Numbered from the stretch's first letter, positions 12,177 to 54,428 are shown. The stretch is 64,000 bases of DNA from Salinactinospora qingdaonensis (GCF_039539445.1 NZ_BAABDD010000001.1:444103-508102); one strand, 5' to 3'. The notes: generated from the sequence alone by a model not told the origin. Made by a program: numbers and translations.

Positions 12177-13274
12177 ATGCGCGAAAAATCCGGATGGGCC
12201 GCAGCGGGGTTCGGCCGGTTAGCGGCAGTGGCCGTTCTCTCGCTCGGCGCCGGCCTGCTGTATACCCCGGCGGCCTCGGCGGCGGCCCAGTGCGAGGCCG
12301 ACTACACGGTGACCAACGATTGGGGCAGCGGCTTTACCGCCCAGGTCACTGTCACCAACGCCGGCGACGCCAGCGGCTCTGACTGGACAGTCACCTGGAC
12401 CTTCCCCGGCGACCAGCAGATCACCAACCCATGGAACGGTTCGGTGACCCAGGACGGCCAGGAGGTGACCGCGACGAGCGCCGGCTGGAACAGCGAGGTC
12501 GCCCCAGGCAGCAGCGCATCGCTGGGGTTCCAGGCGACCTACTCCGGCTCCAACACCGCACCCGCCGATGTCAGTTGCACCTTCGCCAACGGCGGAGACG
12601 ACGGAGGTGACGATGGTGGAGACGACGGAGGCGATGACGGCGGAGACGACGGGGGTGACACCGCCACCCGGATCATGCCGTTGGGCGACTCCATCACCGG
12701 CTCTCCCGGTTGCTGGCGCGCGCTGCTCTGGCAGGAGCTGCAAAACAGTGGCTACACCAACATCGACTTCGTAGGCAGCCTGCCCGAACAGGGCTGTGGT
12801 GTCGCTCACGACGGCGACAACGAGGGCCACGGGGGCGCGCTGGTGACCAACGTCGCCAACCAGGGACAACTGGTGGGCTGGCTCGACCAGACCAATCCCG
12901 ACATCGTCATGATGCACTTCGGCACCAACGATGTCTGGAGTGCGGTGGACACGCAGACCATCCTGGATGCCTACAGCACGCTGGTGGCCCAGATGCGGGC
13001 GAATAACCCGAACATGACGATCCTGGTGGCCCAGATCATCCCGATGGACTCCGCGCAGAGCTGCTCGACCTGTGCCCAAGGTGTTCAGGAGCTCAACGCC
13101 GCCATCCCCGACTGGGCAGCCGCCGAGAGCACGACGCAGTCCCCGGTCGTGGTGGTGGACCAGTGGACCGGTTTCGACACTGCCACCGACACCTACGACG
13201 GGGTGCACCCCAACGACTCCGGTAACGAGAAGATCGCCGAGGACTGGTTCGACGCGCTGGACTCCATCCTCTAG
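12177..13274 (+). CDS. secreted CBM2 (cellulose-binding) - Gly/Asp linker - SGNH/GDSL hydrolase (carbohydrate esterase)
   Basis: RBS AAGGAGAG then ATG at 12177. Signal peptide AAVAVLSLGAGLL..ASAAAQ. CBM2 motifs CEADYTVTNDWGSGF, WTVTWTF. (GGDD)n linker. GDS block MPLGDSIT and DGVHPN. Confidence 0.8.
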   Translation: MREKSGWAAAGFGRLAAVAVLSLGAGLLYTPAASAAAQCEADYTVTNDWGSGFTAQVTVTNAGDASGSDWTVTWTFPGDQQITNPWNGSVTQDGQEVTATSAGWNSEVAPGSSASLGFQATYSGSNTAPADVSCTFANGGDDGGDDGGDDGGDDGGDDGGDTATRIMPLGDSITGSPGCWRALLWQELQNSGYTNIDFVGSLPEQGCGVAHDGDNEGHGGALVTNVANQGQLVGWLDQTNPDIVMMHFGTNDVWSAVDTQTILDAYSTLVAQMRANNPNMTILVAQIIPMDSAQSCSTCAQGVQELNAAIPDWAAAESTTQSPVVVVDQWTGFDTATDTYDGVHPNDSGNEKIAEDWFDALDSIL

Positions 13275-13774
13275 CGACACGGCCGGTTCCTCACGGCAGA
13301 GCGGTCATCGGCCGGGACGGTACCTCCTGTGCCGTCCCGGCCAAGCGCGCGCCACCAGGACTTTGGGGCGTGCGACGACAACAGCGACCTCCCACCGAAG
13401 CACGGAAGGCGAGCCCCGAACCACACCATCGGCGGCGTGCTCCAAAGGGCGTGTAGCTGGGCGGCGATGTCGGCCAGCGCTCCCCTTTCACCGCCGGCGC
13501 CTCGCACAGCCGGCCCGGCGCTTTGGACTCCGTGCCGGGCACCGTCTGCACCCTGTTTCTCACTCCCACCAGTGAGCCGGGCACTCCCCTGCGGAGCGGG
13601 CAGCTCCATGCTTATGGCTGGAAGCGGGGCCCCTGGGCCGAAATAGCGCTTATTCGCTGGTCAACGGGGATTAGAGAGCCGGTGGAAATTTTTCGGCGAA
13701 AAATCGTTGTCCCCGGCAGGGTCGGTGGCTCTTACAGGTGTACGCGCAACAACCGTCCACACCGAGGAGCACTC

Positions 13775-14709: not shown

Positions 14710-16236
14710 ATGCGGGACGCTGAGATCGTGGACGCGATGCTCGCGGGAGAGCCACACGGGTTGGCGGAAGCCTACCGCTACTATGCGGACCGTCTCCACG
14801 ACTACTGCTTGAGACTGCTCGACGACTACGAGGCGGCAGCCGACGCCGTCCACGACACGTTCATCATCGCTGGAGAACGTGTGGGTCGTCTCCGGAACCC
14901 CGATGCGCTGCGGCCGTGGCTGTACGCAATCGCCCGATCTCAGTGTCACCGGGTGTTGCGCCGCCGCTCTCGCTTCGCCGCCTCGTTAGAGGAAATACCG
15001 GAGATGACCGACGAATCTCAGGAGACCCCCGAACGCGGCCTCCACCGCGAGGAGGTTCGCACCCTGGTGCGCGCGGCGATGGCCGGGCTCAACCCGCGCG
15101 AACGTGAGGTCATCGACTTGACGCTGCGTCACGAGTTGAGCGGCACCGAACTGGCGGGAGTGCTGGGGGTTCCCGCCAAGCAGGCCAACGCGGTCGCAGC
15201 CACGGCCCGCGCCCAACTAGAGCGTGCGTTGGGAACCCTACTGGTGGCCCGCACCCGCGGTAAGGACTGCCCGGAGTTGCGCACCTTGCTCGCTGACTGG
15301 GATGGCGAGTTCACGCCGCTGTGGCGTAAGCGCATCAACCGGCACCTGAAGTCGTGCCGGCGTTGTGAGGAGCAGCGCGGTGCCCTCCTCACCCCGGCGT
15401 CTCTCCTCAACGCGCTGCCTCTCGTAGCGGCACCGCCGGAACTGTACGAGCAGCTCATGTCCAGCACCAGCGATACGGGGTTGGCCGGCCACAACAGCGA
15501 GTTCGCGGAGAAGGCGGGCACCTACGACCGGGATGGTTTTCCCGTGCAGGCGGGGCTGGGCGGCGGTGGCAGCTACTCGACGATCGCGATGTTCGTGACC
15601 GTCGGCGGGCTACTGCTCATGCTGATCGGTGGACTGCTCCTCCTGCCGGGGTTGTGGAGGTCCTACGTCGCGCCGTTGGATCCGATAGCGGCGCCTTCGG
15701 TGTCCTCGGCTGGGGAGCCGGCACCGTCCCCGGCGGGAGCTAGCGAATCCTCGACAGTAGCCGGAGCGAGTGCGGCCGAAACCTCAGCCCCTTCCACTCC
15801 CGCTCGGGAGAATACCCCCGGCTCGCCTCCTGGGGGCCAGGTAGCAGCTCCCGAAGAGCCCCCATCGCCCACGAGTGAGGAGCCGCTTGACGACGGCGTG
15901 AGCGGGTCCGTATCGGAATCGGCCACGGTTGAGGCGCCGGTGTCGGTGCTCGGGGCCACGGCTGAAGACGTCTCGCAGGGGTGCGGCGGCCCCTGGACCA
16001 TGAGCGTCTCGGCGCAGACGAGCATGGGCGCGACGTCGGTGGTGGTGAATTGGGAGTCAGCGTCGGCGAGTGGCCAGCAGCCAATGAGTACGGGTGCTGA
16101 GCCCGGAGTGTGGAGCGCCACAGTCGGCGGGCTGCCGTTCGGCGAGTCGGTGAGGTGGTGGGTGAGCGCGTCAGGCCCCGGAGGCACCGACACCGGAACC
16201 CAGCAGAAGCTGAGCCAACTCCCCTGCGTGTACTGA
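14710..16236 (+). CDS. ECF sigma factor fused to a zinc-finger anti-sigma / transmembrane / extracytoplasmic domain
   Basis: 508 aa. Region 2 DAVHDTFIIAGERVGRL...PWLYAIARSQC. Region 4 LNPREREVIDLTLRHELSGTELAGVLGVP. Then HLKSCRRCEE (ZAS-like motif), a TM helix IAMFVTVGGLLLMLIGGLLLL, and a Pro/Ser-rich extracellular region. Confidence 0.7.
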   Translation: MRDAEIVDAMLAGEPHGLAEAYRYYADRLHDYCLRLLDDYEAAADAVHDTFIIAGERVGRLRNPDALRPWLYAIARSQCHRVLRRRSRFAASLEEIPEMTDESQETPERGLHREEVRTLVRAAMAGLNPREREVIDLTLRHELSGTELAGVLGVPAKQANAVAATARAQLERALGTLLVARTRGKDCPELRTLLADWDGEFTPLWRKRINRHLKSCRRCEEQRGALLTPASLLNALPLVAAPPELYEQLMSSTSDTGLAGHNSEFAEKAGTYDRDGFPVQAGLGGGGSYSTIAMFVTVGGLLLMLIGGLLLLPGLWRSYVAPLDPIAAPSVSSAGEPAPSPAGASESSTVAGASAAETSAPSTPARENTPGSPPGGQVAAPEEPPSPTSEEPLDDGVSGSVSESATVEAPVSVLGATAEDVSQGCGGPWTMSVSAQTSMGATSVVVNWESASASGQQPMSTGAEPGVWSATVGGLPFGESVRWWVSASGPGGTDTGTQQKLSQLPCVY

Positions 16237-16454: not shown

Positions 16455-19427
16455 ATGTTCGAGTTCCGCGTGCTCGGCGCGTTGGAGATCACCCGCGACG
16501 GTGTGCGGGTGCCTGTGCCGAGCCGTCGGCAACGAGCCCTGCTCGTTCGGCTACTGGTAGGGGACGGACGTGTGGTGCCCGCCGACGACCTCATCACGGC
16601 CGTGTGGGAGGACGATCCCCCGCGGCGGGCGCAGCACGCCCTGCACACCCAGGTATCGCGACTACGTAGCCTGCTCGCCCCGGCCTGTGAACTCGTGGTG
16701 ACCCAGCCGCCGGGCTACGCCCTCCCCGTAGCCCCCGAGACGGTCGACGCACGGCGCTTCGAAGCTGCGATCGAGCGGGCACGCGCCCTGCTGGCCGAGA
16801 CTCCCACTGCGGCGGCCGAGACTTTCAACGCGGCGTTGACATTGTGGCGCGGCCCGGCCTACGCCGAGTTCGCAGAGTCGTTCGCGCAAGCTGCGGCGGT
16901 GCGCCTGGAGGAGCTCCGGCGCGCTGCTCGCGAGGAGCGGTGCGAGGCGCTGCTGGCAGCAGGGGAGCCAGAGCGGGCCGTAAGCGAACTCGGCGCCGTG
17001 GTGGCGGCTCACCCGCTACGGGAACGTCCGCACGGCCAGCTCATGCGGGCACTGTCGCTGACCGGCCGCCAGTCCGAAGCGCTACGCGTCTACCGCGACT
17101 TCCAGCAGCGTCAACGCGACGAGTTGGGGGTGGACCCCTCGCCCGCGCTGGGCCGGCTGCATGAACAGGTACTGCGCCACGAGATCGAGCGGTCTGCGGC
17201 GGCTCCGCCAAGGGGCGACGTCAGTGAACAGGAACCGGGGGCGACGACGGCGATCCCCACACCGTTGACCGGCTTTGTGGGGCGGGCGGCGGAACTACAC
17301 ACGTTGGGCGAGCTGATCGAGGAAAACCGTATCGTCACGCTGGTGGGGCCGGGCGGTATAGGCAAAACCCGACTCGCGTGGGAGTTGGCGCTACGACTGT
17401 CCAAAGCTTCCCGCCCGGTGTGGTGGGTGGACCTCAGCCCGGCGGGAGAGGCTGCCGATGTCGTCCACCGCTTCAGCCGCGCGTTGGGACTGCACGAACC
17501 GGCCGAAGGAGATATGGCGGAGTTCCTGGTTGAGGCGTTACGTGGCGTGAACGGCGTCATCGTGGTCGACAACTGCGAGCATGTCGTGTGTGCGGTCGCC
17601 GGACTGCTGGAACGGATCGCGCAGTGGTGCCCGGGCGCGGTTCTGTTGGCCACCAGCCGTGAACGACTCGCGGTACCCGGTGAGCGGGTGATGGCGGTCT
17701 CGTCGTTGCCCACCGTTGAACACTCCGGCGAGGCGGGACGGTGGGAAAGTGCCGCGGTGGCGCTGTTCGTGGACCGGCTCCATTCCTCGGGCGGCCCCGA
17801 CTTGGACAGTGGCGATATGGCGCTGGTGGCTGAGCTGTGCCGGCGGTTAGACGGGTTGCCGCTGGCTATCGAGTTGGCCGCGGCACGTTCCCGCAGTTTG
17901 GGGCTCGCTGCGATGGCCGAGCGTTCCCCGCTGGAGTTGTTGGGCGGTGGCCGCGGTGACGAGGGGCGCCACCGCAGCGTACGCGCGGTCTTGGACTGGT
18001 CGTACGACCTACTGTCGGCTGAGGAACGGGCGCTGCTGCGCCGGCTGACCGTATTCAACGGGCACTTCACCCTCGACGACGCCGAGCGGGTGTGCGCCGA
18101 CGAGTACCTCGAAAGCCGCCGGGTCGCGGTGTGTCTGGCCGGTCTCGTGGACAAGTCGATGGTGGCCGGACCGGAACGGGACCGCTACCGGCTACTCGAC
18201 ACGGTGCGGGCCTACGCGAGCGAGCGGTTGACTGAGCAGGAAGATACCGCTCTGCTCGACGCGGCGCACGCCCGCCACTTCGTAGAGATGGCCGAACGGG
18301 CCGCGCAGGAACTGCGCACCCCGGAGGAGCCGGTGTGGGTAGCCCGGATCACCGAGCGTCTCGACGAGTTCCGGATCGTGCACCGGTGGGCGTGTGCCAA
18401 CGACGTCGACCTGGCGGTACGGCTATCCGCGGCGCTGGCCGGCTACGCCGGATACCGGATGCGCTTCGAGGTCCAGGAGTGGGCCGAGACCGCGGCGGCG
18501 CTGCCGGGGGCCGCGCAGCATCCGCTGCGGGCGGCGGCGCTGGCCTCGGCCGCCAACGGGGCGTGGGGGCGCGGCGACTTCTCGCGCGCGGCGGAGTTGG
18601 CCAGGCAGGGCCTGGCCGCGGCTGCGGGCGGCTCCCCTGTGCTGGCCGCCGCGTCGCTGCTTGTCCTCGGCGACGTCGCGCTGCTGGAGGGCAAGTTCGT
18701 TGAGGCCGCTGAAACCTACGGTGCGGTGGCAGGGGCTGCCGGTGACGACGATTTGGTCAGTGCCGCTGAAGCGCTGGGCAGCCAGGCGGTGGCGCTGAGC
18801 TACCAGGGCGACACCACCGAGGCGCTGCCTCTGGCGGACGCAGCCCGCCGTGTGGCCCAGGAACTGGGGGCGCCCGGGCCGATCGCGCTGTCGCTGTACT
18901 TCTCGGGCGAGTGCCGGCTGGTCGACGCTCCGGAGCGGGCGCTAGAACTGCTGTCGCAGTCGCGGCGACTGGCTGCGGAGGTGGATGCGGTGTTCATCAC
19001 CGGAGTCGCAACCGTGTCGTCGGTGTCGTTGCGGGCGCGCGCGGCGAGTGACCCGGTGGCGGCCCTGGCCGCCTACCGGGAAGCGGTCGAACACTGGCGT
19101 CGGATCGGCAACCGGACGCAGCAGTGGGTGACGCTGCGCAACGTGGTCCCGTTGCTGGTGCGAGCGGGCCAGGAGGAGACAGCGTGCCTGCTGCACGGTG
19201 CCCTGGCAGCGGCCCCGGCTCGGCTGCCCGACGACGCGCCCGAAGCCTCGCCGCTGGCCGCTGCCATCGCTCGAGCACGGCGGCTGCTGGGCGACGCGGC
19301 GGCCGAGGCCGCCCAGCAGCGAGGCCGTCGGGCGGGCCTGGACGATCTGGTCAACCGCGTTCTGGCCGCGGTCGAGGCCGCGGCGGCCGGACGAGTGCCT
19401 GTGGATCAGGCGGGGTCGAGCCGGTAG
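16455..19427 (+). CDS. second AfsR/SARP-family regulator (BTAD + NB-ARC + TPR)
   Basis: 990 aa. FRVLGALEITRDGVRVPV...RALLVRLL BTAD domain. P-loop GPGGIGKTRLA. Confidence 0.85.
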   Translation: MFEFRVLGALEITRDGVRVPVPSRRQRALLVRLLVGDGRVVPADDLITAVWEDDPPRRAQHALHTQVSRLRSLLAPACELVVTQPPGYALPVAPETVDARRFEAAIERARALLAETPTAAAETFNAALTLWRGPAYAEFAESFAQAAAVRLEELRRAAREERCEALLAAGEPERAVSELGAVVAAHPLRERPHGQLMRALSLTGRQSEALRVYRDFQQRQRDELGVDPSPALGRLHEQVLRHEIERSAAAPPRGDVSEQEPGATTAIPTPLTGFVGRAAELHTLGELIEENRIVTLVGPGGIGKTRLAWELALRLSKASRPVWWVDLSPAGEAADVVHRFSRALGLHEPAEGDMAEFLVEALRGVNGVIVVDNCEHVVCAVAGLLERIAQWCPGAVLLATSRERLAVPGERVMAVSSLPTVEHSGEAGRWESAAVALFVDRLHSSGGPDLDSGDMALVAELCRRLDGLPLAIELAAARSRSLGLAAMAERSPLELLGGGRGDEGRHRSVRAVLDWSYDLLSAEERALLRRLTVFNGHFTLDDAERVCADEYLESRRVAVCLAGLVDKSMVAGPERDRYRLLDTVRAYASERLTEQEDTALLDAAHARHFVEMAERAAQELRTPEEPVWVARITERLDEFRIVHRWACANDVDLAVRLSAALAGYAGYRMRFEVQEWAETAAALPGAAQHPLRAAALASAANGAWGRGDFSRAAELARQGLAAAAGGSPVLAAASLLVLGDVALLEGKFVEAAETYGAVAGAAGDDDLVSAAEALGSQAVALSYQGDTTEALPLADAARRVAQELGAPGPIALSLYFSGECRLVDAPERALELLSQSRRLAAEVDAVFITGVATVSSVSLRARAASDPVAALAAYREAVEHWRRIGNRTQQWVTLRNVVPLLVRAGQEETACLLHGALAAAPARLPDDAPEASPLAAAIARARRLLGDAAAEAAQQRGRRAGLDDLVNRVLAAVEAAAAGRVPVDQAGSSR

Positions 19428-23580: not shown

Positions 23581-23653
23581 GTGCGCCATCAGGGACTCGA
23601 ACCCCGAACCCACTGATTAAGAGTCAGTTGCTCTGCCGATTGAGCTAATGGCG
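23581..23653 (-). tRNA. tRNA-Lys (anticodon CTT)
   Basis: Minus-strand sequence GCGCCATTAGCTCAATCGGCAGAGCAACTGACTCTTAATCAGTGGGTTCGGGGTTCGAGTCCCTGATGGCGCA folds as a cloverleaf: 7-bp acceptor, D arm GCTC/GAGC, anticodon loop CTCTTAA, T loop TTCGAGT. Confidence 0.85.
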
Positions 23654-23951
23654 CGGGTTGTGCCGCCAGCGGTTGCGGCGCTCAACTGGGTCTTAGTTTA
23701 TCCGATGGGCGGGGCGCTCTCGCCCGTAACGCCGCTACGGGCGACCATCGTGACGGCTGTTTCCGTGGCCGCGTGACCCGCGGAGCTGCTTGGGTAGCCA
23801 ACGGCGACGGTAACAGCGCCGCTGGGCTGGTACACGATCGTGTCATCACCGGCCCCAGAGATCTAAGCTCGACCCATAAGCCCCGCGCGCCACACACCCA
23901 GGACGGCTACGTGACAGACCAACAAGGACACCCCCGCCCCGACCGCGTTCC

Positions 23952-25070
23952 GTGCACCGCCCAGCGCGGCGCGCGCCCGGCAGCGCTGGTCAGATCCAAG
24001 GACACGCCATGATCGCGCGGGGGCCGCGCCGGCTACAGCGCCTCCGCCCCGACGATCCGCGCACCGTGGGCGCCTATGACATCGTCGGCCGTATCGGTTC
24101 GGGCGGCATGGGCACCGTCTATGCGGGCACGACCGACGAACTCAGTGGCTATATCGCGATCAAGGTCGTTCACGGCGAGCACGCGGCCAACCAAGAGTTC
24201 CGCAAGCGTTTCGCTCGCGAGGCCAAGCTGATGGCCCGCGTCGACAGCCCGTGCCTGGCCCGGTTCATCCACGCCGACGTGGAGGCCGAACTGCCGTGGT
24301 TGGCCACCGAGTTCGTCCCCGGCCCGACACTGCGCCATTACGTGGAACGCCACCAGCCGCTGCGCGGCGGCATGCTGTTGGGGTTGGCGGCCGGCACGGC
24401 CGAGGCGCTGCGGTCGATCCATGCGGCGGGCATCGTGCACCGCGACTTGAAGCCGAGCAACATCATCTTGGCCCCCGAAGCGCCGAAGCTACTCGACTTC
24501 GGGATCGCCTACGCCGACGAGGACCCGACCTGGTGGCTGCGGGTGCGCCGGGTCTACCGGGGGGCGCGCGAGCGGCGCGTTTCCCCGCCCCGCGTGCCCA
24601 GCCAGTCGAGCAAATCGGGCTCGGGGGGAGGCGACCGGGTGGGGACGCCCGGCTGGATCAGCCCGGAGCAGTACCAGCGCAAGGCGGTCAGTGACCGCTC
24701 TGACATCTTCCTGTGGGGAGCGCTGGTGGGCTTCGCCGCGGCGCGGCACGACCCGTTCGGCCATGGCCCACCTAAGGAGATGGCCCGGCGGGTCCTGCAC
24801 GAGCAGCCCGACCTACAGGGGCTCCCCCCTCAGCTCAAGGAGTTGGTGCTGGCGGCGATGGCGAAGAACCCTGATGACCGCCCCAGCTCCAAAGAGGTCC
24901 TTCAGCGCGTTCTGGAGCTTGCCGAACCGGGCGAGGAGGCGCCCGCGGGCGACCGGCAGCGGTTGCGGGCCCTGCTCAGCAGGGAGTGGACCCGCGTCTC
25001 GGACCGGCTGCCCAAACCTCCCCGGCCGGCGCTGCGGGAGATACTGACCAGCCGACGCGAGCAGCCGTGA
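23952..25070 (+). CDS. Ser/Thr protein kinase (Hanks type) with unusually long activation-segment insertion
   Basis: GRIGSGGMGTVY (Gly loop), AIKVV (VAIK), HRDLKPSNI, DFG ... ISPEQ (APE). About 55 residues lie between DFG and APE. The start could be the internal M at 24010. Confidence 0.8.
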   Translation: MHRPARRAPGSAGQIQGHAMIARGPRRLQRLRPDDPRTVGAYDIVGRIGSGGMGTVYAGTTDELSGYIAIKVVHGEHAANQEFRKRFAREAKLMARVDSPCLARFIHADVEAELPWLATEFVPGPTLRHYVERHQPLRGGMLLGLAAGTAEALRSIHAAGIVHRDLKPSNIILAPEAPKLLDFGIAYADEDPTWWLRVRRVYRGARERRVSPPRVPSQSSKSGSGGGDRVGTPGWISPEQYQRKAVSDRSDIFLWGALVGFAAARHDPFGHGPPKEMARRVLHEQPDLQGLPPQLKELVLAAMAKNPDDRPSSKEVLQRVLELAEPGEEAPAGDRQRLRALLSREWTRVSDRLPKPPRPALREILTSRREQP

Positions 25071-25211: not shown

Positions 25212-25913
25212 CTACCCGTGTTCGCGCGCGTGGCCGTCGGTGCCGTCGTCTTCCTGGGCGGCCAGCTTCTTGGCCTTGCGCACGCCTGCGGCGTCGACGA
25301 TGTTGTCCTCGTCAAGGTGGGAGAGCGGGCTCTGTTCGAGGTGGGTGACGACGGTTTCGGTGATGACATAGCCGCTCAGGTCGGTGTCAAGGGCGCTGAG
25401 GAGGCGGTCGCGGAACTCGTCGGGGTTGTTGAGCAGCTCGAGGAAGTCGAACTGCGCTCCGACGGCCTTGAGCGCGTCGTGGAACCCACCGTGGAACGTC
25501 TCTTCCAGGCGTTGCTGGGTGCTGGCCCCCGTGTCGTACTGGAGGGAGGCGGCCTTGATCACGTCTTCAGCGGTGTGGTTGACGCGCAGCGAGAACGTGA
25601 TGGTGATGTCGGCGCGGATACCGTCACGGCAGAGCATCCCCTCCCGACCGCTGCGAGATATCTCGATGCGCTTGGGGGAGAGATCGACCCGATCGGCCTT
25701 GTCGAGAAATCTCGGCAGCACGGCCCTGGTGAAGCTGACTTCGGGCTCCGCCGGTTTCGCGTGCCGGTGAATGATCAGCGCCTCGTCCTCCTTAGCGGTG
25801 TAGAACACGTAGTTGAACAGATAGACGAGCACGATGGCGATGACACAGACGACGCCGAAAATCGGCTCGACGAGGTTGAGGTAGGCGAGCATCGGAGGGC
25901 TGGAGGCGAGCAT
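25212..25913 (-). CDS. SPFH/band-7 (flotillin N-domain-like) membrane protein, paralog of the flotillin N-terminus
   Basis: N-terminal TM helix, then an SPFH core. Clear similarity to residues 1-230 of the 670-aa flotillin (RDGIRADITITF vs RDNIRADIRITF). Confidence 0.7.
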   Translation of the reverse strand: MLASSPPMLAYLNLVEPIFGVVCVIAIVLVYLFNYVFYTAKEDEALIIHRHAKPAEPEVSFTRAVLPRFLDKADRVDLSPKRIEISRSGREGMLCRDGIRADITITFSLRVNHTAEDVIKAASLQYDTGASTQQRLEETFHGGFHDALKAVGAQFDFLELLNNPDEFRDRLLSALDTDLSGYVITETVVTHLEQSPLSHLDEDNIVDAAGVRKAKKLAAQEDDGTDGHAREHG

Positions 25914-26011
25914 CGAGGACTCCCGCGGGTAACTGGCCGGTTGGGGCAAGCGGGCAGGGGGACGGCCACGCCTGGGGGCACGGGGCGGCGGGACCTGCCG
26001 ACGCTAGAGTC

Positions 26012-29000
26012 TCACTGGTCGGGTGTGGAGCGTTCGGCGGCACGGGCGATGGCCCGCTCGACCGCGCCCACCTGGTCGGCCAGCAGCCCCACCGCCGCAA
26101 CGGCCCTGCTCATGGGGTCGTCGGCGCCGCCGAGCGCTCGTTCGCGCAGGTAGGCGTCCTTGACTTCGGCCCAGCGTTTGGCCTGCTCCTCGGTCATCGT
26201 GCCCCGCAGCTCAGCCAGCTTGAGCAGGTTGGCCTCGGCTCCTGAGGTCAACGTCTGGGCCTCCCCCAGGTAGTGGTCGTCGATCAGGGCACTCAACTCG
26301 GCGTCGTTGAGCACCGGCATGACCCGTTCGGCCAGCTTGTTCATGTTGCGGTAGGAGCCCTGCAACTGGAACGGCGGCTCGGTGCGCGCGGCGTCGGACT
26401 GGGCGGCCGAAGCGATGTAGGCCTGGTTGTTGGTCAAGACCACGCGCTGGACCACGAGCAGCTTGCGCAGCACAGCCAGGATCTGCTCCAGTTCCACCGC
26501 GGAGTAGGGGTGGGTGAGCTGGTCGGGCCGGACCGACTCGTCACCGTTGGCCAGACGCACCAGCAATTCCACATCGCCGCGGTCGCGCGTGGACAGCGGG
26601 GCCAGCACCGGGTTGGAGGTCAGCGCGTTTTCGATGTAGCTGAGTGCGAACAGGTCGTCCTTGCCGGAAAGCACGTCGCCGAGGTTGTAGACGTCGGCGC
26701 GGTTGGCGAGCATGTCGGGCACCTGGAAACGCTGCCCGGACTCGGTGTAGGGGTTGCCGGCCATGCACACCGCGAACCGTTTGCCCCGCAGGTCGTAGGT
26801 GCGGGTCTCGCCCTCCCACACGCCTTCCATGCGCCGCTGGGCGTCGCACAGCGAGATGAACTTCTGGAGCAGTTCGGGCGAGGTGTGTTGGATGTCGTCC
26901 AGGTACAGCAGCACGTTGCTGCTCATCTCCAGCGCAAACGAGATCTTCTCGACCTCTTGGCGGGCCGTGGCGTTGGGGGCCTGCTCCGGATCGATCGAGG
27001 TGACCTCCTGGCCCAGGGCGGGGCCGTTGACCTTGACGAACACCAGGCCGAGCCGACTGGCCACGTACTCCATGAGCGTGGTCTTGCCATAACCGGGCGG
27101 GGAGATGAGCAGCAGGAGGCCCATCTGGTCGACGGTGGCGCCGTCGCCGGCCGTGCCGAGTTGTTTGGCGAGGTTGTCGCCGATCAGCGGCAGGTAGACC
27201 TCGTCGAGCAGCCGGTTGCGCACGAACCCGCTCATCACCCTGGGCTGGTAGTCGTCCATGCGCAGCCGGTGCCGCTCGCGCTGGGCCAACTCGGTGCGGC
27301 GACGCTGGTAGTCGCGGTAGGCGGGGACCCGCTCGGTACGGAACCGGCGGGTGCGGGCGAGGATCTCGTCGAGGCGGAGCTCTAGGCGGCGTTCGGTGAT
27401 ACGCGGATGGGTGCCGAGCAGATCGGGGATGGTGGCGCTGAGCTGGGCCGTGACCTCGTAGCGGGGAAGGTCGTGGCCGCCCAGGAGGAGGGCTACCGAT
27501 TCGGGTAGGTCGGCTGCGGGGATGTCGGGGGCGGTTGTGCTGCGGAAAGAGGCCAGCCATGCGTGGGTGAGCTGGTGGCGCGCGGTCAGGTCGGTGTCGA
27601 GGGCGGCGAGGTCGGCGTCGAACTCGCGGCGGGCGGCAGCGTCGGGGCCGCCGAGGTGGCGCTGGAACCGTTCCACCAGCTCTTGGGCGCCCGGGCCGGT
27701 GACGAAGCCTTCTGGTTGGGCGGCCAGTTCTTCGAACAGGTACTCCCCCACTAGTTCCTCGCCGGAGGGCTGTGTGGGAAGGCCGGTGGTGCGGGTGAAC
27801 GCGGCAACGGCGCCGCCCAGCTCGTCGGCTAGCTCGGTGATCGCCTCCGAGTGGCCGAACAGGGCGCGGGCCCGCGCCAAGGAGGCGGCCCGCGCGCTCC
27901 ACGCCGCCTTGGCGTCGGTGTCGGCGCCGAAGGCCCAGAACAGTTGGGCGGCGCTGCGCGCGTGGGGCGGGTAGCGCAGCAGGCCGGCCTCGGCGCGCAG
28001 CCGGAGCAGGGCCGCCAGGATCGCCGTGGCGTCGTGGTCGTGGACGCCGCGCTCGTAGCCCTCGTCATAGCGGGTCTCGGCGGCGCGGCGCACTACGTCG
28101 AGGAGTCCGCTGTCGGTGGCCGCGGACTCGTACAGCGCGTCCAGAGAGACCTCGCCCTGGCCAGACTCGGCGTGAGCCAGGATCGAAGTGGCCAGGTGTT
28201 CGGCGCGGTAGACCTCGGGGGACTCCGACACCAGGTGCTGGTCCCAGAACCGTTTTGTGCCGGCGAAGTCGGCGTCGCGCACGGGCGAGCGGTAGTCGGT
28301 TCCGGTGATGGTGAAGGTCATCTCGCCCTCGTGGGGGACGAGGGTGAGGTCGATGGGTTGGGTGTTGACCGCGAAACTGTGGCGGCCCAGCCGGATGGTC
28401 TGGCCGCTGTCGCCGTAGAGGTCGGCGCGGTCGAGCAGGGCGCGGCCGGCCTCCTGGCGGGCGGCGCGGATACGTCCTTCGAGCTCCTCGGCGCGCACCT
28501 GGTCGCCCAGCGAGCGCAGTTCCTCGACGCTTTGGCGCAGCTTGGCCACCATGGAGTCGGTGGCGAAGTAGGTGTTGACCTCGTCGGTGGACGACAGGGT
28601 GACGGCGCGGCGGTGCACGCTGGCGAGGATGCGTTCGGCCGAGGCGGCCACGCGGTCGGCGCGGCGGGTGCGCTCGTCGAGCAGGGCTTGTTTACGCGCG
28701 GCGAAGGCATCGGTGATCTCGTCGCGTTTGTCGGCGAGTTCGGTGCGGAAATCGTCGAACTCGCCGAAGCGCGCCTCAAGGTTCTCCAGCCGCAGCAGGA
28801 GCCGGCTGAGTTGTTCGTCGCAGGACTCGGGGGTGTCGGCCGCGGCGAGCGCACCGGTGACAGCCTGGCCGAGGAGGGCGAACTCGGCGGCGAACTCGGC
28901 GCGTCCTTCGGTGGAGAGCAGTTCTTGGCGACGCAGGTCCACAGTGGCGCGGGCGCGGTTGATGCCGCCCAGCACCTCGCCGATGTGTTCCAGGATGGTG

Positions 29001-30988
29001 GTGCGCACCGTGGCGTCGGCGATGTCGATGGAGCCGACGACTTCGGTGAGGGTCTCCAGCCCTTCGGAGTGTTCGGCGAGCCGGTCGGTGATGGGTTGGG
29101 CTTGGGCGACGGTGGTGATGGCGCCTGCCTCGGCGGCGAGGCTCCCCACGGTGTCGTGGTAGCTGGTGAAGGCGTCCTCGGCGCTGAGGAAGGCGATGGC
29201 GCGTTCGCCGGTGTCGGCGAGCGCGTCAGTGAGTTGGGCAGCCAGCTCGTCGATGCGCTCGGAGTCGATGTAGCGCATCTCCCGCAGAGTTTCCAGGTGG
29301 CCCTGGAGGCGGCGCAGTTCGGCCAGGCGACTCACCCAGGCGTCGGCTGTGGTGGGGTCGTCCTCGCGGGTCTGGCGCACCAGGGCGGTGATGCGGGTGG
29401 CGGCGTCGTCGAGGGCGGTGGCGGCCTGCTGGGTGAGAGCCTGGACGTTGGCGAACTCGTCCAGGACCTGCTTGGCGGTCTCGCGTAGCTCTTCGAGGGG
29501 GCTGCTCAGGTCTTCGAGCTCGTCCTCGGACAGCCAGTGGTAGTGGTCGAAGGCGCGCTGGCAGGCGGCGATGAGCGCTTGGAACACCGGGACGGCGGGG
29601 GCCATCTCGTCGACCATCCGGGCTACGGACAGGCAGTCGGAGATACCGCGGACCAGTTCGGCGTTGCCAAGGCGTTCCAGCGGGCCGGTGCCGGTGGGTT
29701 GGGCGGCGGCGTGGGTGTCGGACTGGTAGGGGGTACGCCACACCTGCATGGGGTGCACGCGGGTGGGCTCCTCGGAGAAGGCGCGGAAGACCATGAGGGT
29801 TCCGTCGCCGAACAGCGAGTAGCCGTGGCAGGGGATCGGAGTGGCGACCTCCTTGCGGATCACGTTGTAGGGCAGGAGCAACGAGCGGCCGTCGTCGCGG
29901 GAGTGGAAGACATAGAGCGCGTCCTCGCCGTTGGGCGAGCGGATGACCCGTTCAAACTCCAGGTTGGTCACGTCGGTGTCGAAGGTCTTGTTGACACCGG
30001 TGGTCAGGTAGTAGCCGCCGGGGAAGATGATCCCGTGGTCCTCCGGTAGACGCTGGCAGGCCTGACCGATCCCGTCGAGGCGCACAACGTCGCCGGTTCT
30101 GGTGTTGCACACCAGATGGCGCCACTCGTTCTCCTTGTAGGGGCGGATACGCAGCAGGATCAGCGATCCCACCCGTGCGTAGTGCACCTCGGCGTCGGCC
30201 AGGCTCTGCAACGGCTCGTCGACCGGCTCGCTGTAGCTGCCCTGGTCGGTCTCGGTGTCGTTGTCGAGTTTGACGGTGAGGCTGCCGCCGAGGGTGTCGA
30301 CGAAGAACTCACCGAGGATAGAGATGTGGGGGTGGCGGCCGGCCACGTGGTCTTCCCGGGTGGCCGACTGCCATTCAAAGTCTTGCGCGGGCGGGAAGAC
30401 GTGCTGGCGGTCCCCCCGGTTGTCCAGGTAGGTGACCGTGCCGTCGGTGTCGATCCGCCAGCGCAGCACCCGGATATCGGCGGTGCGCGGACCGGTCTGG
30501 AACACGGCCAGCAGCGTGTCCTCAAAGCCGCGCAACTGGAGCAGGCGGGTATCGCGGTAGTAGCGGTACAGCTCCCCGAAGTCGCGGAGGAACCGCTCGT
30601 CGCACAACAGCCCGTGGGGAGCCTGGTCGGTCTCGTCGAGCTGAATGCCGTCACTGTCGTGGGTGAAGTGACGCAGCGCAAAGACGTCGCTGACGCTGGT
30701 CTCAGTCTTGGAACCGACCAGGGGGTTGAACCCGATCAGCATGAGCTGGCCGATCGACACGATGTCGCGGGGGACACAGTTGTGTTCGGTGTGGACCCGC
30801 TGCGTGCCGATCTGGCGCAGCTCGGTGCTGCCGAAAACCTCCAGGCGCCGCTCGTTGAGCAGCTCGGCCCGCCGGGTCAGCTCGGCGGCCTGCTCAAAGA
30901 GCCGGCTCCGCAGCACCTCGTAGGTGCCGGCGTCGAGTTCGGCACGGTCCTGGCTGTCGTCGGGAGGCGTCGTGGAGGCATCGGTCAC
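26012..30988 (-). CDS. giant (1658-aa) multidomain protein with C-terminal AAA+ ATPase domain, long central coiled-coil/helical region and N-terminal domain of unknown function
   Basis: GTG start immediately after the flotillin stop. Walker A ISPPGYGKTTL, Walker B NVLLYLDDIQH, sensor-1 CMAGNP and RAD arginine lie at about aa 1265-1420 (nt about 26730-27200). The central region is rich in L/A/E/R heptad-like segments. Confidence 0.7.
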   Translation of the reverse strand: MTDASTTPPDDSQDRAELDAGTYEVLRSRLFEQAAELTRRAELLNERRLEVFGSTELRQIGTQRVHTEHNCVPRDIVSIGQLMLIGFNPLVGSKTETSVSDVFALRHFTHDSDGIQLDETDQAPHGLLCDERFLRDFGELYRYYRDTRLLQLRGFEDTLLAVFQTGPRTADIRVLRWRIDTDGTVTYLDNRGDRQHVFPPAQDFEWQSATREDHVAGRHPHISILGEFFVDTLGGSLTVKLDNDTETDQGSYSEPVDEPLQSLADAEVHYARVGSLILLRIRPYKENEWRHLVCNTRTGDVVRLDGIGQACQRLPEDHGIIFPGGYYLTTGVNKTFDTDVTNLEFERVIRSPNGEDALYVFHSRDDGRSLLLPYNVIRKEVATPIPCHGYSLFGDGTLMVFRAFSEEPTRVHPMQVWRTPYQSDTHAAAQPTGTGPLERLGNAELVRGISDCLSVARMVDEMAPAVPVFQALIAACQRAFDHYHWLSEDELEDLSSPLEELRETAKQVLDEFANVQALTQQAATALDDAATRITALVRQTREDDPTTADAWVSRLAELRRLQGHLETLREMRYIDSERIDELAAQLTDALADTGERAIAFLSAEDAFTSYHDTVGSLAAEAGAITTVAQAQPITDRLAEHSEGLETLTEVVGSIDIADATVRTTILEHIGEVLGGINRARATVDLRRQELLSTEGRAEFAAEFALLGQAVTGALAAADTPESCDEQLSRLLLRLENLEARFGEFDDFRTELADKRDEITDAFAARKQALLDERTRRADRVAASAERILASVHRRAVTLSSTDEVNTYFATDSMVAKLRQSVEELRSLGDQVRAEELEGRIRAARQEAGRALLDRADLYGDSGQTIRLGRHSFAVNTQPIDLTLVPHEGEMTFTITGTDYRSPVRDADFAGTKRFWDQHLVSESPEVYRAEHLATSILAHAESGQGEVSLDALYESAATDSGLLDVVRRAAETRYDEGYERGVHDHDATAILAALLRLRAEAGLLRYPPHARSAAQLFWAFGADTDAKAAWSARAASLARARALFGHSEAITELADELGGAVAAFTRTTGLPTQPSGEELVGEYLFEELAAQPEGFVTGPGAQELVERFQRHLGGPDAAARREFDADLAALDTDLTARHQLTHAWLASFRSTTAPDIPAADLPESVALLLGGHDLPRYEVTAQLSATIPDLLGTHPRITERRLELRLDEILARTRRFRTERVPAYRDYQRRRTELAQRERHRLRMDDYQPRVMSGFVRNRLLDEVYLPLIGDNLAKQLGTAGDGATVDQMGLLLLISPPGYGKTTLMEYVASRLGLVFVKVNGPALGQEVTSIDPEQAPNATARQEVEKISFALEMSSNVLLYLDDIQHTSPELLQKFISLCDAQRRMEGVWEGETRTYDLRGKRFAVCMAGNPYTESGQRFQVPDMLANRADVYNLGDVLSGKDDLFALSYIENALTSNPVLAPLSTRDRGDVELLVRLANGDESVRPDQLTHPYSAVELEQILAVLRKLLVVQRVVLTNNQAYIASAAQSDAARTEPPFQLQGSYRNMNKLAERVMPVLNDAELSALIDDHYLGEAQTLTSGAEANLLKLAELRGTMTEEQAKRWAEVKDAYLRERALGGADDPMSRAVAAVGLLADQVGAVERAIARAAERSTPDQ

Positions 30989-30995
30989 AGGAGAT

Positions 30996-33008
30996 TCACC
31001 GCTTCAGTGCGTGCAGGTCGGCGACGGGGGCTTCGGCCACGCCCAGGCGTTGGGCGGTGTCGAGCAGTTCGCGCAGTTGGGACTCCTGGGCGCCACCCTG
31101 GTTGATCAGCCGCATCAGCAGCGCCGACAGTGAGAGGTTGGCGACGTCGGAGGTGTTGACCGAGCCGACGAGCCGCGACACGTCTTCGGGCAGGCTCGCT
31201 TGGCCGTCCAGGTAGGGCTGGGCGAGGTTCTGGGCGGCGGTGGAGTGGGCCAGGAAACCGTCGACGGCCTTACCGGCGCTGATGGAGCCGACCATGCGGT
31301 CGAAGAACGCGCCATCGCCGCCGACGATGTCGATGTCGGCCTTTTCCAGCCCGGCGGCCAGCACTGACGCCTGCGACTCGGCGACCTGGCGCTGCACGTC
31401 GATGCCGGCGAGCCGGACCTCCTTGTCGGCCTCCAGCCGCAGCCGGTACTCCTCGTGTTCGCGGGTGGCCTCGTCCAGCGCGGCCATCGCCTCGGCCTTG
31501 TCGGTGAGACCTTCGGCTTCGGCCTTGAGCTTCTCGCGCATCGCCTCGGCTGTGGCCTTTTCCTTCTCGCGGGCGGCTGCGGCCTCGGCCCGGCCGACCC
31601 GTTCGATGGCCTCGGCGTCGCGTTCGCGCACCTGTACCTCGGCCAGGCCGGCAGCGGCGGCCTCGGCCTGCTTGCTCTCGGCCAGCCGGATGTTGGCCTG
31701 GGCGTCGAGTTCGGCGGCCTGCTGGCGCCCCTCGGCAAGCGCCTTCTCTTCGCGGACCTTGTGCTGGGCGGCCTGTTCGGCGGCCTCGGCCGCCTTGATG
31801 TCCTTGACCAAGTTCTCTTGGGCTTCGGCTTCGGCCTCGATCACCTTGGTCTGGCGCTGGCGCTCGGCCTCCTCGACGGCGCGCACGCGCTTGATGCTCT
31901 CCTCCTGCTCGGCCACGGTCTTGTCGACGGCGACACGCTCGCGGATGGTCTCGGCGATCTCGCGCTTCTCGGTCTCGACCTCTTTGTCCTTGGCGATGCG
32001 GGACAGCTCGGTTTCGCGGTCGCGGGCGATGACCTCAAGCAGCCGGTCTTTTTCGATGCGCTCGGCCTCGATGGCGATGACCCGTTCCCGGTTCTTCTCG
32101 GCCACGGCGACCTCGCGGTCGCGGTTCTGGCCGGCGACGCCGATCTGCTCTTCGGTGCGCAACTGCGCGGTGCGGGACTTGAGCTGTTCCTCGGCCTGCA
32201 CGGCGGCGGTCTCGGCCTCCTTGCGGGCGCGCATGGTCTCGACCTCGTTTTGGTGCTTGGCCTCGGCTTCGGCCTGGCGCCGCTGTAGCTCCAGGATGGC
32301 CTCGCGCGCCTCGACGTTTTGGCGCTCGATCTCCTTTTGCTGGTCGCGCGTGTGCTCGTTGGTGCTGACGCTTTCGATCGCGGTCAGCTCGGTGATCTTG
32401 CGGATGCCCTGAGCGTCGAGGATGTTGGCCGAGTCGAGCTGGGCCATGGGGGTCTGCTCAAGGTAGTCGATGGCGGCGTCCTCAAGGCTGTAGCCGTTGA
32501 GGTCGGTGCCGATGACGCTGACGATGCGGTCCCGGAACTCGTCACGCTTGGTGTAGAGGTCGACGAAGTCGAGTTGCTTGCCGACGGTCTTGAGCGCCTC
32601 GGAGAACTTAGCGTTGAACAACTCCTGTAGCGTCTCCTGGTCACTGGCCCGGTCGGTGCCGATGGCCTGGGCGACCTTTATCACGTCCTCAACGGTCTTA
32701 TTGACCCGGACGAAGAACGTGATGCGGATGTCGGCGCGGATGTTGTCTCGACAGATCAACCCTTCCTTACCGGTGCGGTTGATGTCGATGGTCTTGACCG
32801 AGATGTCCATGTACTCGGCCTTGTGCAGCACCGGCAGCACCACGGCGCCGGTGAAGGTGACGTCGACCTTCTTGATCTTGGAGACGATCAGGGCCCGGCC
32901 TTGGGGGACTTTGCGGAATAGGCGGCCGATGACGAAGACAATGGCGAGGAGAGCGAGGAGGACGACGGCGATCAGTACGCCGACGCCAATGGTGATGGCT
33001 TCCATCAA
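30996..33008 (-). CDS. flotillin-family protein (FloT/YuaG-like): TM + SPFH domain + long EA-rich coiled coil
   Basis: 670 aa. N-terminal TM helix, SPFH core, (E/A/K/R)-rich coiled coil of about 250 aa, flotillin C-terminal domain. Confidence 0.85.
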   Translation of the reverse strand: MMEAITIGVGVLIAVVLLALLAIVFVIGRLFRKVPQGRALIVSKIKKVDVTFTGAVVLPVLHKAEYMDISVKTIDINRTGKEGLICRDNIRADIRITFFVRVNKTVEDVIKVAQAIGTDRASDQETLQELFNAKFSEALKTVGKQLDFVDLYTKRDEFRDRIVSVIGTDLNGYSLEDAAIDYLEQTPMAQLDSANILDAQGIRKITELTAIESVSTNEHTRDQQKEIERQNVEAREAILELQRRQAEAEAKHQNEVETMRARKEAETAAVQAEEQLKSRTAQLRTEEQIGVAGQNRDREVAVAEKNRERVIAIEAERIEKDRLLEVIARDRETELSRIAKDKEVETEKREIAETIRERVAVDKTVAEQEESIKRVRAVEEAERQRQTKVIEAEAEAQENLVKDIKAAEAAEQAAQHKVREEKALAEGRQQAAELDAQANIRLAESKQAEAAAAGLAEVQVRERDAEAIERVGRAEAAAAREKEKATAEAMREKLKAEAEGLTDKAEAMAALDEATREHEEYRLRLEADKEVRLAGIDVQRQVAESQASVLAAGLEKADIDIVGGDGAFFDRMVGSISAGKAVDGFLAHSTAAQNLAQPYLDGQASLPEDVSRLVGSVNTSDVANLSLSALLMRLINQGGAQESQLRELLDTAQRLGVAEAPVADLHALKR

Positions 33009-33029
33009 AGATTCCTGTACGTCGATGGA

Positions 33030-33692
33030 TCATTCGGGGGGACGGTTCGGGTCGAGCTCGGCGTCATAGGGAGCGACCCAAAAGAACCCGCCCTCGGCGC
33101 TGTACTCGTAGATCAGCGCGCTACTACCGGTCGTGAAGGTGTCGGTGCCGATCTGGCGCACCTGCACGAGGGAGGAGGAGCCGTCGGCCGCGGTGACCTC
33201 AGCCTGACCGAAGTCGGCGGTGACGCGGCCGGTACGGATGACACAGACCCTGCCGATGAAGTCCTGCTGGGAGGGGCTACGCCCGTCGGGGAAGAGACGG
33301 CGCCACAACAGCGCCAGCATGCTGGTACACAGCCAGGCGCAGACGAGGGCGAGCAGGAGTACGGCGATGGAGAGGGCGACCAGCAGGGGGGTGGACACGG
33401 CGAGCCCCTCGATCACCACGTTGCCGGTGAGGCTGACGAACCAGGCCACGGCGATCAGCAGCGAGAGCGCGACGGTGGCCGGCACCCCACCCATGCCCGC
33501 TCCGGCGAGGGCGCTCGCCAACCCCCCTGCGGCCAGTCCTTCCGTGCCCACGGCGCTGCCAGGGTCGACGTCAAGTGCGTCGAGCTCCGCGGCGCCGAGA
33601 AGTACGAGCACCCAGTAGCCGGCGACGACGAGCAACGAGAACGTAAACAGTGCGGTGGGAAAAGTGATTACTGCGGCAAGGAACTCACGCAT
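33030..33692 (-). CDS. NfeD-family membrane protein (YuaF-like, flotillin operon partner)
   Basis: 220 aa. Several TM helices, then a C-terminal OB-fold GRVCVIRTGRVTADFGQAEV...LVQVRQ. Lies 22 bp upstream of the flotillin gene. Confidence 0.75.
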   Translation of the reverse strand: MREFLAAVITFPTALFTFSLLVVAGYWVLVLLGAAELDALDVDPGSAVGTEGLAAGGLASALAGAGMGGVPATVALSLLIAVAWFVSLTGNVVIEGLAVSTPLLVALSIAVLLLALVCAWLCTSMLALLWRRLFPDGRSPSQQDFIGRVCVIRTGRVTADFGQAEVTAADGSSSLVQVRQIGTDTFTTGSSALIYEYSAEGGFFWVAPYDAELDPNRPPE

Positions 33693-34659
33693 CGGTTTTC
33701 ACTCTCCCACCTATTCCACTGCAACGCCCCCGGAAAATGGCAACTGGACGAGGACTCTACACCTATTCGTCACCGTCGGAACCAATGGCTGGAGACCTCA
33801 TCCGGCCATATCGGGGAAACACCGGCGACCCCGCCATCATCTGGCACAGTGGATTGCTGCTCATGGCGCTATGGGCATTTTGGTTCCATTCCAAAGAGGT
33901 GGTACTCGCAACACTCACGACGGTGCGCCACGGTGGGCGAGGAGCCGTCGGCGGCGCTTGGCAGGCACCGGGTGGCGGCACGGAACCCGCTGTAGCACAC
34001 GGACTCCTGCCTTCCGAGCGGGTCGAGACATGGCGCGCCTGAGGCGAGGCTAGTGGCTCCCACCCGCGCGCTCTCGTCGCCGGCGCTTTCCTCGGATCTC
34101 AGCTTCCTGTCTCCAAACGCCGCCGGGGATCGGTGCCGCACCAATGAGGAGGGCTTCCATGAGAGATTCCTGTGAATCGAGGAATCAATTGGGATACCGC
34201 AGGGGCGGAGATCGCGTTAAGAAAATCCTCTCACAAGGAATCCACACCCGACTTCGTACCTGGCAATCGCGCGATACCACACAGTGAAAATGCCGGTTAC
34301 AATCCGAGGAACCCGCCCGCCGATGTGTTTTCGCTTTCCGCTGTTCCCGCCGCGGCGCCGCCTGGAAAATGCCGACTGTACGAGGTTCTCTCACCGGTTG
34401 GCGGTGCTCGCCCGCGGGCGGAAGTGCCTGCGGCAGCCAGGCCGTGGCGTCGACACCGATCTGTGTCCGGCCTCGGCACCGCAGATGAGCTCTGCCCCAC
34501 CACGGCGAAGCCGTGGTGGCCCCATCGAGGCGGCCCACCACGAAACGCACGGTGGCGCGCTGGAGCACAGCGCGTGTGGAGCGAGGTGAGGAACAGCCGC
34601 GCCCGGCGTAAGCCCACCGGGCGCCACACGATGCCTTGGCTTTAGCCGACCCTTAGGGC

Positions 34660-34702
34660 AGGAGACACGAAACGGGCCCTTCTCCTATAAGAGAAGAGCC
34701 CG
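34660..34702 (-). terminator. putative intrinsic terminator downstream of tRNA-Lys copy 2
   Basis: Hairpin CGGGCCCTTCTC-CTATAA-GAGAAGAGCCCG, followed on the minus strand by UUUCGUGUCU. Confidence 0.45.
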
Positions 34703-34747
34703 TCGAATCGTATTAAGCACGCCCAACGACTCCGTTGGCCTTGCTTG

Positions 34748-34821
34748 GTGCGCCATCAGGGACTCGAACCCCAAACCCACTGATTAAGAGTCAGTTGCTC
34801 TGCCGATTGAGCTAATGGCGC
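34748..34821 (-). tRNA. tRNA-Lys (anticodon CTT), second copy
   Basis: 73/74 nt identical to the copy at 23581..23653. One G>A change in the T-stem that keeps a G-U pair. Confidence 0.85.
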
Positions 34822-53688: not shown

Positions 53689-53780
53689 GAGGGCCACTCT
53701 AGGACGCCGCGCCGACACCGGCAGCGCCGACGGCGAACCGGAAAGCGGGAGGCCGACCCGCGTCTCGGGCGCGAACCTAT

Positions 53781-54419: not shown

Positions 54420-54428
54420 ATGGCCATG

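Follow-up and report, generated by a model that had tools for sequence, protein, structure and literature searches.

In Bacillus subtilis yuaF-floT (yuaG) and Escherichia coli yqiJ-yqiK, a small multi-transmembrane (TM) OB-like protein is encoded directly upstream of a protein that joins a TM helix, an SPFH domain and a coiled coil. The same arrangement is found in a stretch of Salinactinospora qingdaonensis DNA of 64,000 nucleotides (nt) (the window; positions are counted from its first letter), where the two genes are followed by a gene for a giant AAA+ ATPase of 1658 amino acids (aa). The initial annotation of the window had noted that canonical flotillin operons such as yuaF-floT consist of two genes and lack such an ATPase. 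Here we show that the three genes of this flotillin–ATPase cassette are inherited together and that their tight, often translational, coupling extends across bacterial phyla; the S. qingdaonensis locus is one regular example of a three-gene module that is widespread and vertically stable.

The general concept of an SPFH scaffold that works with a membrane-associated AAA+ ATPase has precedents: both HflK/C-FtsH and prohibitin with the m-AAA protease have been characterised as SPFH cages with an AAA+ machine as partner. An SPFH protein is also reported to link PspA to the membrane in B. subtilis (PMC8581546). FtsH, of the classical AAA+ clade, carries TM helices as well as a Zn-protease domain and is located inside a cage facing the periplasm or intermembrane space. 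In contrast, the ATPase of the window is soluble, of the MoxR class as modelled and without a protease domain, and its cage is predicted to face the cytoplasm. The MoxR proteins CbbQ, NorQ and RavA, which remodel or mature specific protein complexes, are ~270–500 aa long and have VWA-domain partners, whereas in the window the MoxR-type module is the C-terminal part of a 1658-aa protein with a putative propeller, an arm and a middle domain, and has an Asp-Asp Walker B motif. The surroundings of the cassette include no conserved VWA gene; the one at the Myxococcus xanthus locus is convergent and not conserved.

The operon itself was already noted by comparative genomics in 2024, and the idea is not new. 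Ravi et al. (mSystems 2024; PMC11237479) described in silico an operon of YqiJ/YuaF, flotillin and a ‘novel AAA+ ATPase with coiled coil and beta-propeller’, which was found in a survey of PspA neighbourhoods, sometimes with CesT/Tir-PspA, and whose architecture is listed for Dokdonia in their supplementary table. The window has the three components in the same order and corresponds to the ‘abbreviated operon’ of that paper, without PspA, to which it adds a short SPFH gene. Its giant ATPase has the propeller, coiled-coil and AAA+ architecture of the published operon, the propeller match being weak, and its flotillin has the Band_7 domain, the TM helix, the coiled coil, a 7-nt separation from the ATPase gene and synteny in 78 of 78 loci. 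The published description contains no structure, motif analysis or experiment; beyond it, the present analysis places the ATPase in the MoxR/dynein class, on the strength of models, and identifies an invariant Asp-Asp Walker B. The initial annotation had seen no characterised precedent for such a machine, a view that is not supported, given this in silico description and the SPFH–AAA+ pairs characterised elsewhere.

Conservation of the three-gene cassette

A profile of the DUF3686 domain, which forms the N-terminal part of the giant ATPase, was run against GTDB, with one genome for each species, and matched at least 599 loci. The best 80 of these were taken with 10-kb flanks, and the 78 that have upstream DNA were searched by tblastn with the window proteins. 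In all 78, the gene immediately upstream of the ATPase gene, and on its strand, encodes a flotillin orthologue (48–77% identity); in 75, the gene for the 220-aa protein with three TM helices (the 3TM protein) lies upstream of flotillin. The 78 loci come from many actinomycete genera, including Streptomyces and Glycomyces, from three Acidobacteriota metagenome-assembled genomes (MAGs), from Myxococcota (M. xanthus, Corallococcus) and from one Clostridia MAG. Since the gene order of flotillin and ATPase is the same in every one of these related loci, their adjacency is far beyond chance. A 4-nt overlap of the flotillin stop with the ATPase start occurs in many genera, and the identities of the two proteins to their window counterparts co-vary (r = 0.88, 73 loci). 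Called-gene tables for Micromonospora and Amycolatopsis give the trio in the same order.

The trio is also carried by far more distant bacteria. It is present in Niabella (Bacteroidota), where the flotillin is 44.5% and the ATPase 34% identical over the full length; in Vibrio alginolyticus, where the SPFH domain is 27% identical to that of the window flotillin (E 2e-22); on the Pseudomonas fluorescens megaplasmid pQBR103 (flotillin 44% identical, 3TM protein recognised with an hhalign probability of 99.8%); and, judged by gene order and lengths only, on a Deinococcus megaplasmid. The cassette is found together in at least seven bacterial phyla, and 13 records place it on megaplasmids or chromids. 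More than 5695 homologues of the giant ATPase were found, with ~70% identity over 1650 aa across actinomycete families, and the DUF3686 N-terminal domain is present in 753 clusters at 50% identity.

The synteny in the 78 loci and in the distant genomes bears out the proposal of the initial annotation that the giant AAA+ gene is a conserved operon partner of flotillin and the NfeD-like gene. That annotation had allowed that homologues of the giant gene might lie apart from flotillin genes in other genomes; the gene-neighbourhood search found the trio kept, and the flotillin–ATPase linkage is therefore real.

No fourth conserved gene was found around the cassette by neighbour-gene clustering, a procedure that was disturbed by long antisense ‘shadow’ open reading frames (ORFs) within flotillin genes. 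In the window, such ORFs are seen opposite the cassette at 31240..32412 (+), 26273..27385 (+) and 27851..29488 (+), with equivalents in 53 loci. They are an artefact of high GC content and of coding sequence for Glu/Ala/Arg-rich coiled coils.

The flotillin-like and 3TM proteins

In the window flotillin, basic residues follow an N-terminal TM helix; next come an SPFH/Band_7 domain, a Glu/Ala/Arg-rich coiled coil of ~300 aa and a conserved C-terminal region. Its Band_7 score of 24.8 bits is just over the 23.6-bit cut-off. Against the NCBIfam equivalog model for FloT (NF058507) it scored 27.7 bits and did not reach the 700-bit cut-off, and a sequence search of the PDB gave no match. In architecture the protein resembles flotillins, but it is no orthologue of FloT.

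In the 220-aa protein, three TM helices are predicted. Its Gly/Ala-rich loop is variable, and the beta-rich (OB-like) domain at its C-terminus is conserved, with a block that reads GRVCVIRTGRV..FGQAEV..VQVR..ALIYEY. Both the TM and the C-terminal blocks are conserved in an alignment of 15 orthologues (A6), and it was to the profile of this alignment that the pQBR103 orthologue was matched with the probability given above. In NCBI and UniRef the protein and its orthologues are named ‘DUF1449 family protein’ or ‘OB-fold-containing protein’. The 220-aa protein has no Pfam match, and the 15 orthologues match no family at E ≤ 1. The A6 profile found no hit in the PDB and did not match the NfeD (PF01957) or YqiJ (PF21001, DUF1449) models; the Niabella orthologue gave a sub-threshold match to YqiJ_N (18.3 bits, cut-off 23). 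A flotillin below the FloT cut-off and an upstream protein without an NfeD or YqiJ Pfam match thus set the window apart from yuaF-floT and yqiJ-yqiK. Positively charged residues follow the TM helices of the membrane proteins and the giant ATPase has neither TM segment nor signal peptide, so the soluble parts of all three presumably share the cytoplasm.

Architecture of the giant ATPase

In Pfam, the giant ATPase matches DUF3686 (PF12458, E 2e-208), DUF7902 and AAA/AAA_5, and no TM segment or signal peptide is evident from its sequence. AlphaFold2 models were built on a diverse alignment of 65 sequences and reached a predicted local distance difference test (pLDDT) score of 88.7 for aa 1–870 (model mafb62162b344) and 92.2 for aa 851–1658, the latter with a predicted TM-score (pTM) of 0.84. 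The N-terminus is modelled as a long helix (aa 20–52) followed by an all-beta, propeller-like domain (aa 58–418). Foldseek searches with this beta domain returned weak propeller matches (DCAF1 WDR, Vps18, PON1, prolyl oligopeptidase and the clathrin terminal domain) with a probability of ~1 and a target-normalised TM-score (TMt) of at most 0.41. The modelled helical arm (aa 424–857) is made of bundles that structure matches liken to spectrin/plectin repeats. Structure comparison of the middle domain (aa 858–1250) gave no assignable fold or function; the domain contains a motif, G981-x-H983-D-x-D986-A (aa 981–987, 28028..28048), that is invariant in 60 diverse members of the family.

The C-terminal AAA+ module is similarly well conserved. 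Invariant in the 60 members are its Walker A motif SPPGYGKT (1296–1303) and the motifs GNPYT (containing N1412), PDMLxNR (1424–1430) and QGSYRxM (1543–1549). Walker B carries Asp-Asp (D1364, D1365) in place of the usual Asp-Glu, followed by Q1367 and H1368 (26885..26899), and this too is found in 60 of 60. From their position in the sequence, N1412 and R1430 are candidates for sensor 1 and the arginine finger. On this assignment the Walker A Lys, the Walker B acidic pair, the sensor-1 Asn and the Arg finger are all invariant, with Asp-Asp as the acidic pair. The nearest structural neighbours of the modelled module are CbbQ, NorQ, dynein and midasin; ahead of the sensor-1 strand lies a beta-hairpin. 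By these models the module belongs to the MoxR/dynein class (helix-2-insert / pre-sensor-1 hairpin). A sequence search of the PDB returned only P-loop hits and no closer solved structure.

The giant ATPase is 100% identical to S. qingdaonensis protein P0001, which NCBI names ‘DNA repair ATPase’, and Pfam labels DUF3686 ‘ATPase involved in DNA repair’. These names are the sole support, beside a weak P-loop similarity to RuvB (17 bits, cut-off 282), for taking the protein as a DNA-repair ATPase whose adjacency to flotillin is functionally meaningless, and no paper supporting the name was found in the literature. No DNA-binding, nuclease or helicase domain was detected by hidden Markov model (HMM) and PDB searches, nor any protease or toxin effector domain. 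The closest relatives of the AAA+ module are MoxR and dynein rather than RuvB or clamp loaders. The synteny in 78 of 78 loci is with membrane proteins, and no repair gene is conserved nearby. A role in DNA repair is therefore extremely improbable.

Linkage to PspA and the proposed role of the cassette

In two distant lineages the module directly follows operons for PspA, the bacterial ESCRT-III. In Niabella (locus L084) the order is CesT_Tir, PspA_IM30, further genes, flotillin and ATPase, the last two being homologues of the window's genes; this is the full CesT/Tir-PspA version of the operon described in PMC11237479. On pQBR103, a megaplasmid of P. fluorescens SBW25 (locus L085, NC_009444.1 85404-100852), a yjfJKLMC-like PspA/polyamine operon runs directly into the cassette. 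The genes upstream there encode PspA/IM30, a rhomboid protease, DUF2491, DUF350 and DUF1190 proteins and a glutathionylspermidine-synthase-like protein, and a MvaT/MvaU-type gene comes after the cassette.

The best explanation for the cassette that we infer, at a probability of roughly 0.55, is ATP-driven remodelling of a cytoplasmic flotillin cage, or of its clients, in the handling of membrane stress. Flotillin, anchored by its N-terminal TM helix, would build an SPFH cage at the cytoplasmic face of the membrane, and the OB-like domain of the 3TM partner would sit with this cage, as in QmcA-YbbJ. The giant ATPase would oligomerise via its AAA+ module, dock on the cage or its clients via the propeller and the helical arm, and use ATP to assemble, disassemble or remodel them during membrane stress or repair. 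Comparable roles are those of Vps4, which acts on ESCRT-III, and of the MoxR ATPases, which act on partner complexes of their own. Vps4-ESCRT-III and PspF-PspA, in both of which an AAA+ protein controls a membrane-bound polymeric scaffold, are conceptual analogues; the window ATPase has no MIT domain, and its homology to these systems goes no further than the AAA+ fold. The initial annotation's picture of an ATP-driven machine linked to a membrane scaffold is in this respect a reasonable reading.

A more specific form of this explanation can be offered tentatively. The DUF3686 ATPase would be the energy source of a flotillin/PspA system, in which a MoxR-class ring on a coat-like propeller and helical-repeat arm binds the cage and, with PspA, drives assembly, disassembly or membrane repair.

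Alternatively, the chief substrates of the machine could be client membrane proteins inside the flotillin cage, which it would extract, insert or hand over in the manner of FtsH in HflK/C or of the MoxR–VWA maturation chaperones. SPFH cages enclose client proteins, as in HflK/C-FtsH, and the MoxR class of the AAA+ module is that of ATPases which remodel or mature specific complexes. In the same vein, FloA-NfeD of Staphylococcus aureus is reported to stabilise unfolded proteins (PMC11222466). However, no VWA partner, protease or conserved client gene is found in the neighbourhood, the aromatic pore loop is absent, and the PspA linkage suggests membrane integrity over a specific client. Client handling as the main activity is unlikely.

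Large multidomain nucleoside triphosphatases with propeller sensors are common in conflict systems, and the cassette could also be an anti-phage system of the abortive-infection type, in which the propeller and arm sense the invader while flotillin and the 3TM protein give a membrane effect. Its distribution is patchy outside Actinomycetes and extends to the megaplasmids and chromids counted above. In V. alginolyticus (locus L083, LJTH01000004.1) the cassette lies between a cluster of RNA-ligase, HD-KTI12-AAA_33 (PNK-like) and R2K ATP-grasp genes and a HipAB pair with TelA, with an IS605 OrfB at the edge. This accessory-island context is unlike that in Actinomycetes. Set against a conflict function, the four proteins gave only P-loop-level matches in PADLOC-DB 2.0 (E 1.5e-3 to 7e-3), and no match was found in 50,697 phage genomes. 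The ATPase keeps an identity of ~70% across actinomycete families and shows no sign of the fast diversification that immune sensors typically undergo; the genes keep their order, with a link to PspA membrane-stress operons; and domain searches gave no nuclease, protease or toxin effector. We regard a conflict system as distinctly improbable, though less so than a repair ATPase.

Several observations weigh against ATP-driven cage remodelling as the role of the cassette. Between the Walker A and B motifs, reading of the sequence revealed no canonical aromatic pore loop, which together with the Asp-Asp Walker B makes threading or unfolding doubtful; the putative ATP hydrolysis may be slow or regulatory. 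The propeller assignment leans on weak structural matches (TMt ≤ 0.41). PspA adjoins the cassette neither in the window nor in most loci, and the accessory, mobile contexts in Vibrio and on megaplasmids (HipAB, RNA ligase, IS605) also fit a conflict system. The NfeD/YqiJ label is not confirmed: the ‘nfeD’ name of the initial annotation fits the topology, the position and the source names, on which it leans, but no HMM confirms it. In the literature, no experimental papers on any member of the cassette were found.

Gene coordinates and flanking sequences

ORF calls and translations confirmed the four minus-strand ORFs of the initial annotation (Table 1). For the flotillin-like gene, the ATG start at 33005 is more likely than the TTG at 33008. 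Read from the sequence, the gap between the NfeD-like stop and the flotillin start is 24 nt with the ATG or 21 nt with the TTG, and that between the flotillin stop and the giant ATPase start is 7 nt. The longest ORF of the short SPFH gene extends to a TTG start at 25949, which leaves 62 nt after the ATPase stop; from the ATG at 25913 the distance is 98 nt. The 60-bp gap given by the initial annotation thus fits the TTG start, not the end at 25913 that it quoted. GC content at the third codon position (GC3) is 0.85–0.90 across the four genes, and 0.868 in the short SPFH gene, so that all four resemble native coding genes.

Table 1. Features of the cassette and its surroundings, with positions in the window.
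Feature	Position	Strand	Extent	Basis or remarks
tRNA-Lys(CTT) pair	23581..23654 and 34746..34821	same strand		complete genes, 11 kb apart
Ser/Thr kinase gene	23952..25070	+		convergent to cassette
Short SPFH gene	25212..25913	-	233 aa	ATG start as in NCBI annotation
Giant ATPase gene	26012..30988	-	1658 aa	GTG start; ORF and translation
AAA+ module with lid and C-terminal helices	26015..27226	-	aa 1255–1658	
Middle domain	27239..28417	-	aa 858–1250	small beta-sheet unit, then helical domain
Helical-repeat arm	28418..29536	-	aa 485–857	includes DUF7902 (aa 605–689)
DUF3686	29537..30883	-	aa 36–484	Pfam and AlphaFold2
Flotillin-like SPFH gene	30996..33008 (TTG) or 30996..33005 (ATG)	-	670 aa (TTG) or 669 aa (ATG)	ORF and translation; Band_7
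YqiJ/YuaF(NfeD)-like gene	33030..33692	-	220 aa	ORF and translation
Upstream region of cassette	33693..34745		~1 kb	no coding signal

The upstream region of the cassette is unusually long for an intergenic region in the S. qingdaonensis genome. A GC plot, an ORF list and Rfam gave no frame-specific GC3 signal, convincing ORF or RNA family in it; no match to the sigma-70 consensus was found there, and a promoter/terminator scan was uninformative. The region may be the promoter or leader of the cassette, or may encode an unannotated RNA.

The short SPFH gene, the kinase and the tRNAs

The initial annotation had described the ATPase as inserted between two SPFH proteins. No counterpart of this SPFH gene lies downstream of the ATPase gene in the 78 loci scanned by tblastn, and none is annotated there in the four distant loci (Vibrio, Niabella, pQBR103 and Deinococcus). 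A search of 5.8 billion proteins returned no homologue of the short protein other than itself. The short SPFH protein is therefore a species orphan and the conserved unit is three genes; a four-gene machine with two SPFH proteins as a conserved design is ruled out, the downstream copy being unique to S. qingdaonensis. The protein has a TM helix and an SPFH domain (Band_7, 35.3 bits), which is 45% identical to flotillin residues 25–223; the coiled coil and C-terminal region are missing. As a lineage-specific extra, it may either modulate cage assembly or be a duplicate in decay. Among the loci fetched, only a Thermoanaerobaculia MAG (locus L058) has another second SPFH copy. This is a fragment at 7198..7683 of that locus, 60% identical to flotillin residues 32–191, and it sits between the NfeD-like gene and the full flotillin gene, unlike the downstream copy of the window.

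The adjacent Ser/Thr kinase gene and the bracketing by tRNA genes, to which the initial annotation had attached interest, are both real. The kinase gene is convergent to the cassette and is not a conserved neighbour, a kinase being found within 10 kb at varying positions in 7 of 82 loci, and it is ruled out as part of the system. A single base separates the bodies of the two tRNA-Lys(CTT) genes, whose flanks show no relation to each other, and no tRNA is found near the cassette in the closest relatives, Actinorugispora and Nocardiopsis. With complete tRNA genes, unrelated flanks and relatives without tRNAs at this place, a tRNA-bracketed genomic island is ruled out, and the two genes are paralogues, not island att sites. 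No integrase was seen among the neighbours of the window's cassette. In Amycolatopsis sp. Hca4 (locus L002) the cassette also lies between tRNAs, Thr upstream and Glu and Met downstream (3661..3735, 13110..13332), which is probably a coincidence because other relatives show none. The kinase and the tRNAs are bystanders and, together with the second SPFH gene, local accidents.

Elsewhere in the window, a minus-strand run at 47502..55739 encodes a PLD-like nuclease-domain protein (47502..49541), a 1298-aa Helicase_C protein (50143..54039) and an AAA_21/AbiEii-like ATPase (54429..55739), and is a possible defence cluster. Two large SARP-type regulators, at 4769..7726 and 16455..19427, have Trans_reg_C and BTAD domains followed by NB-ARC/AAA_16, the first also with TPR, and an ECF-like sigma-domain protein is encoded at 14710..16236.

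Significance

A flotillin subfamily with an obligate, co-evolving ATPase partner, present at no fewer than 599 loci at one genome per GTDB species, offers a direct genetic and biochemical handle on what bacterial flotillins do and on whether their cages are actively regulated, and tractable carriers are at hand in M. xanthus, Streptomyces, Thermobifida, Vibrio and the P. fluorescens plasmid pQBR103. The misleading name ‘DNA repair ATPase’, carried by thousands of database entries, deserves correction. The cassette ATPase is also a possible ATP-driven partner for the bacterial PspA/ESCRT-III. If the DUF3686 ATPase does power the flotillin/PspA system, bacteria would possess in it a functional equivalent of Vps4, which they were thought to be without.

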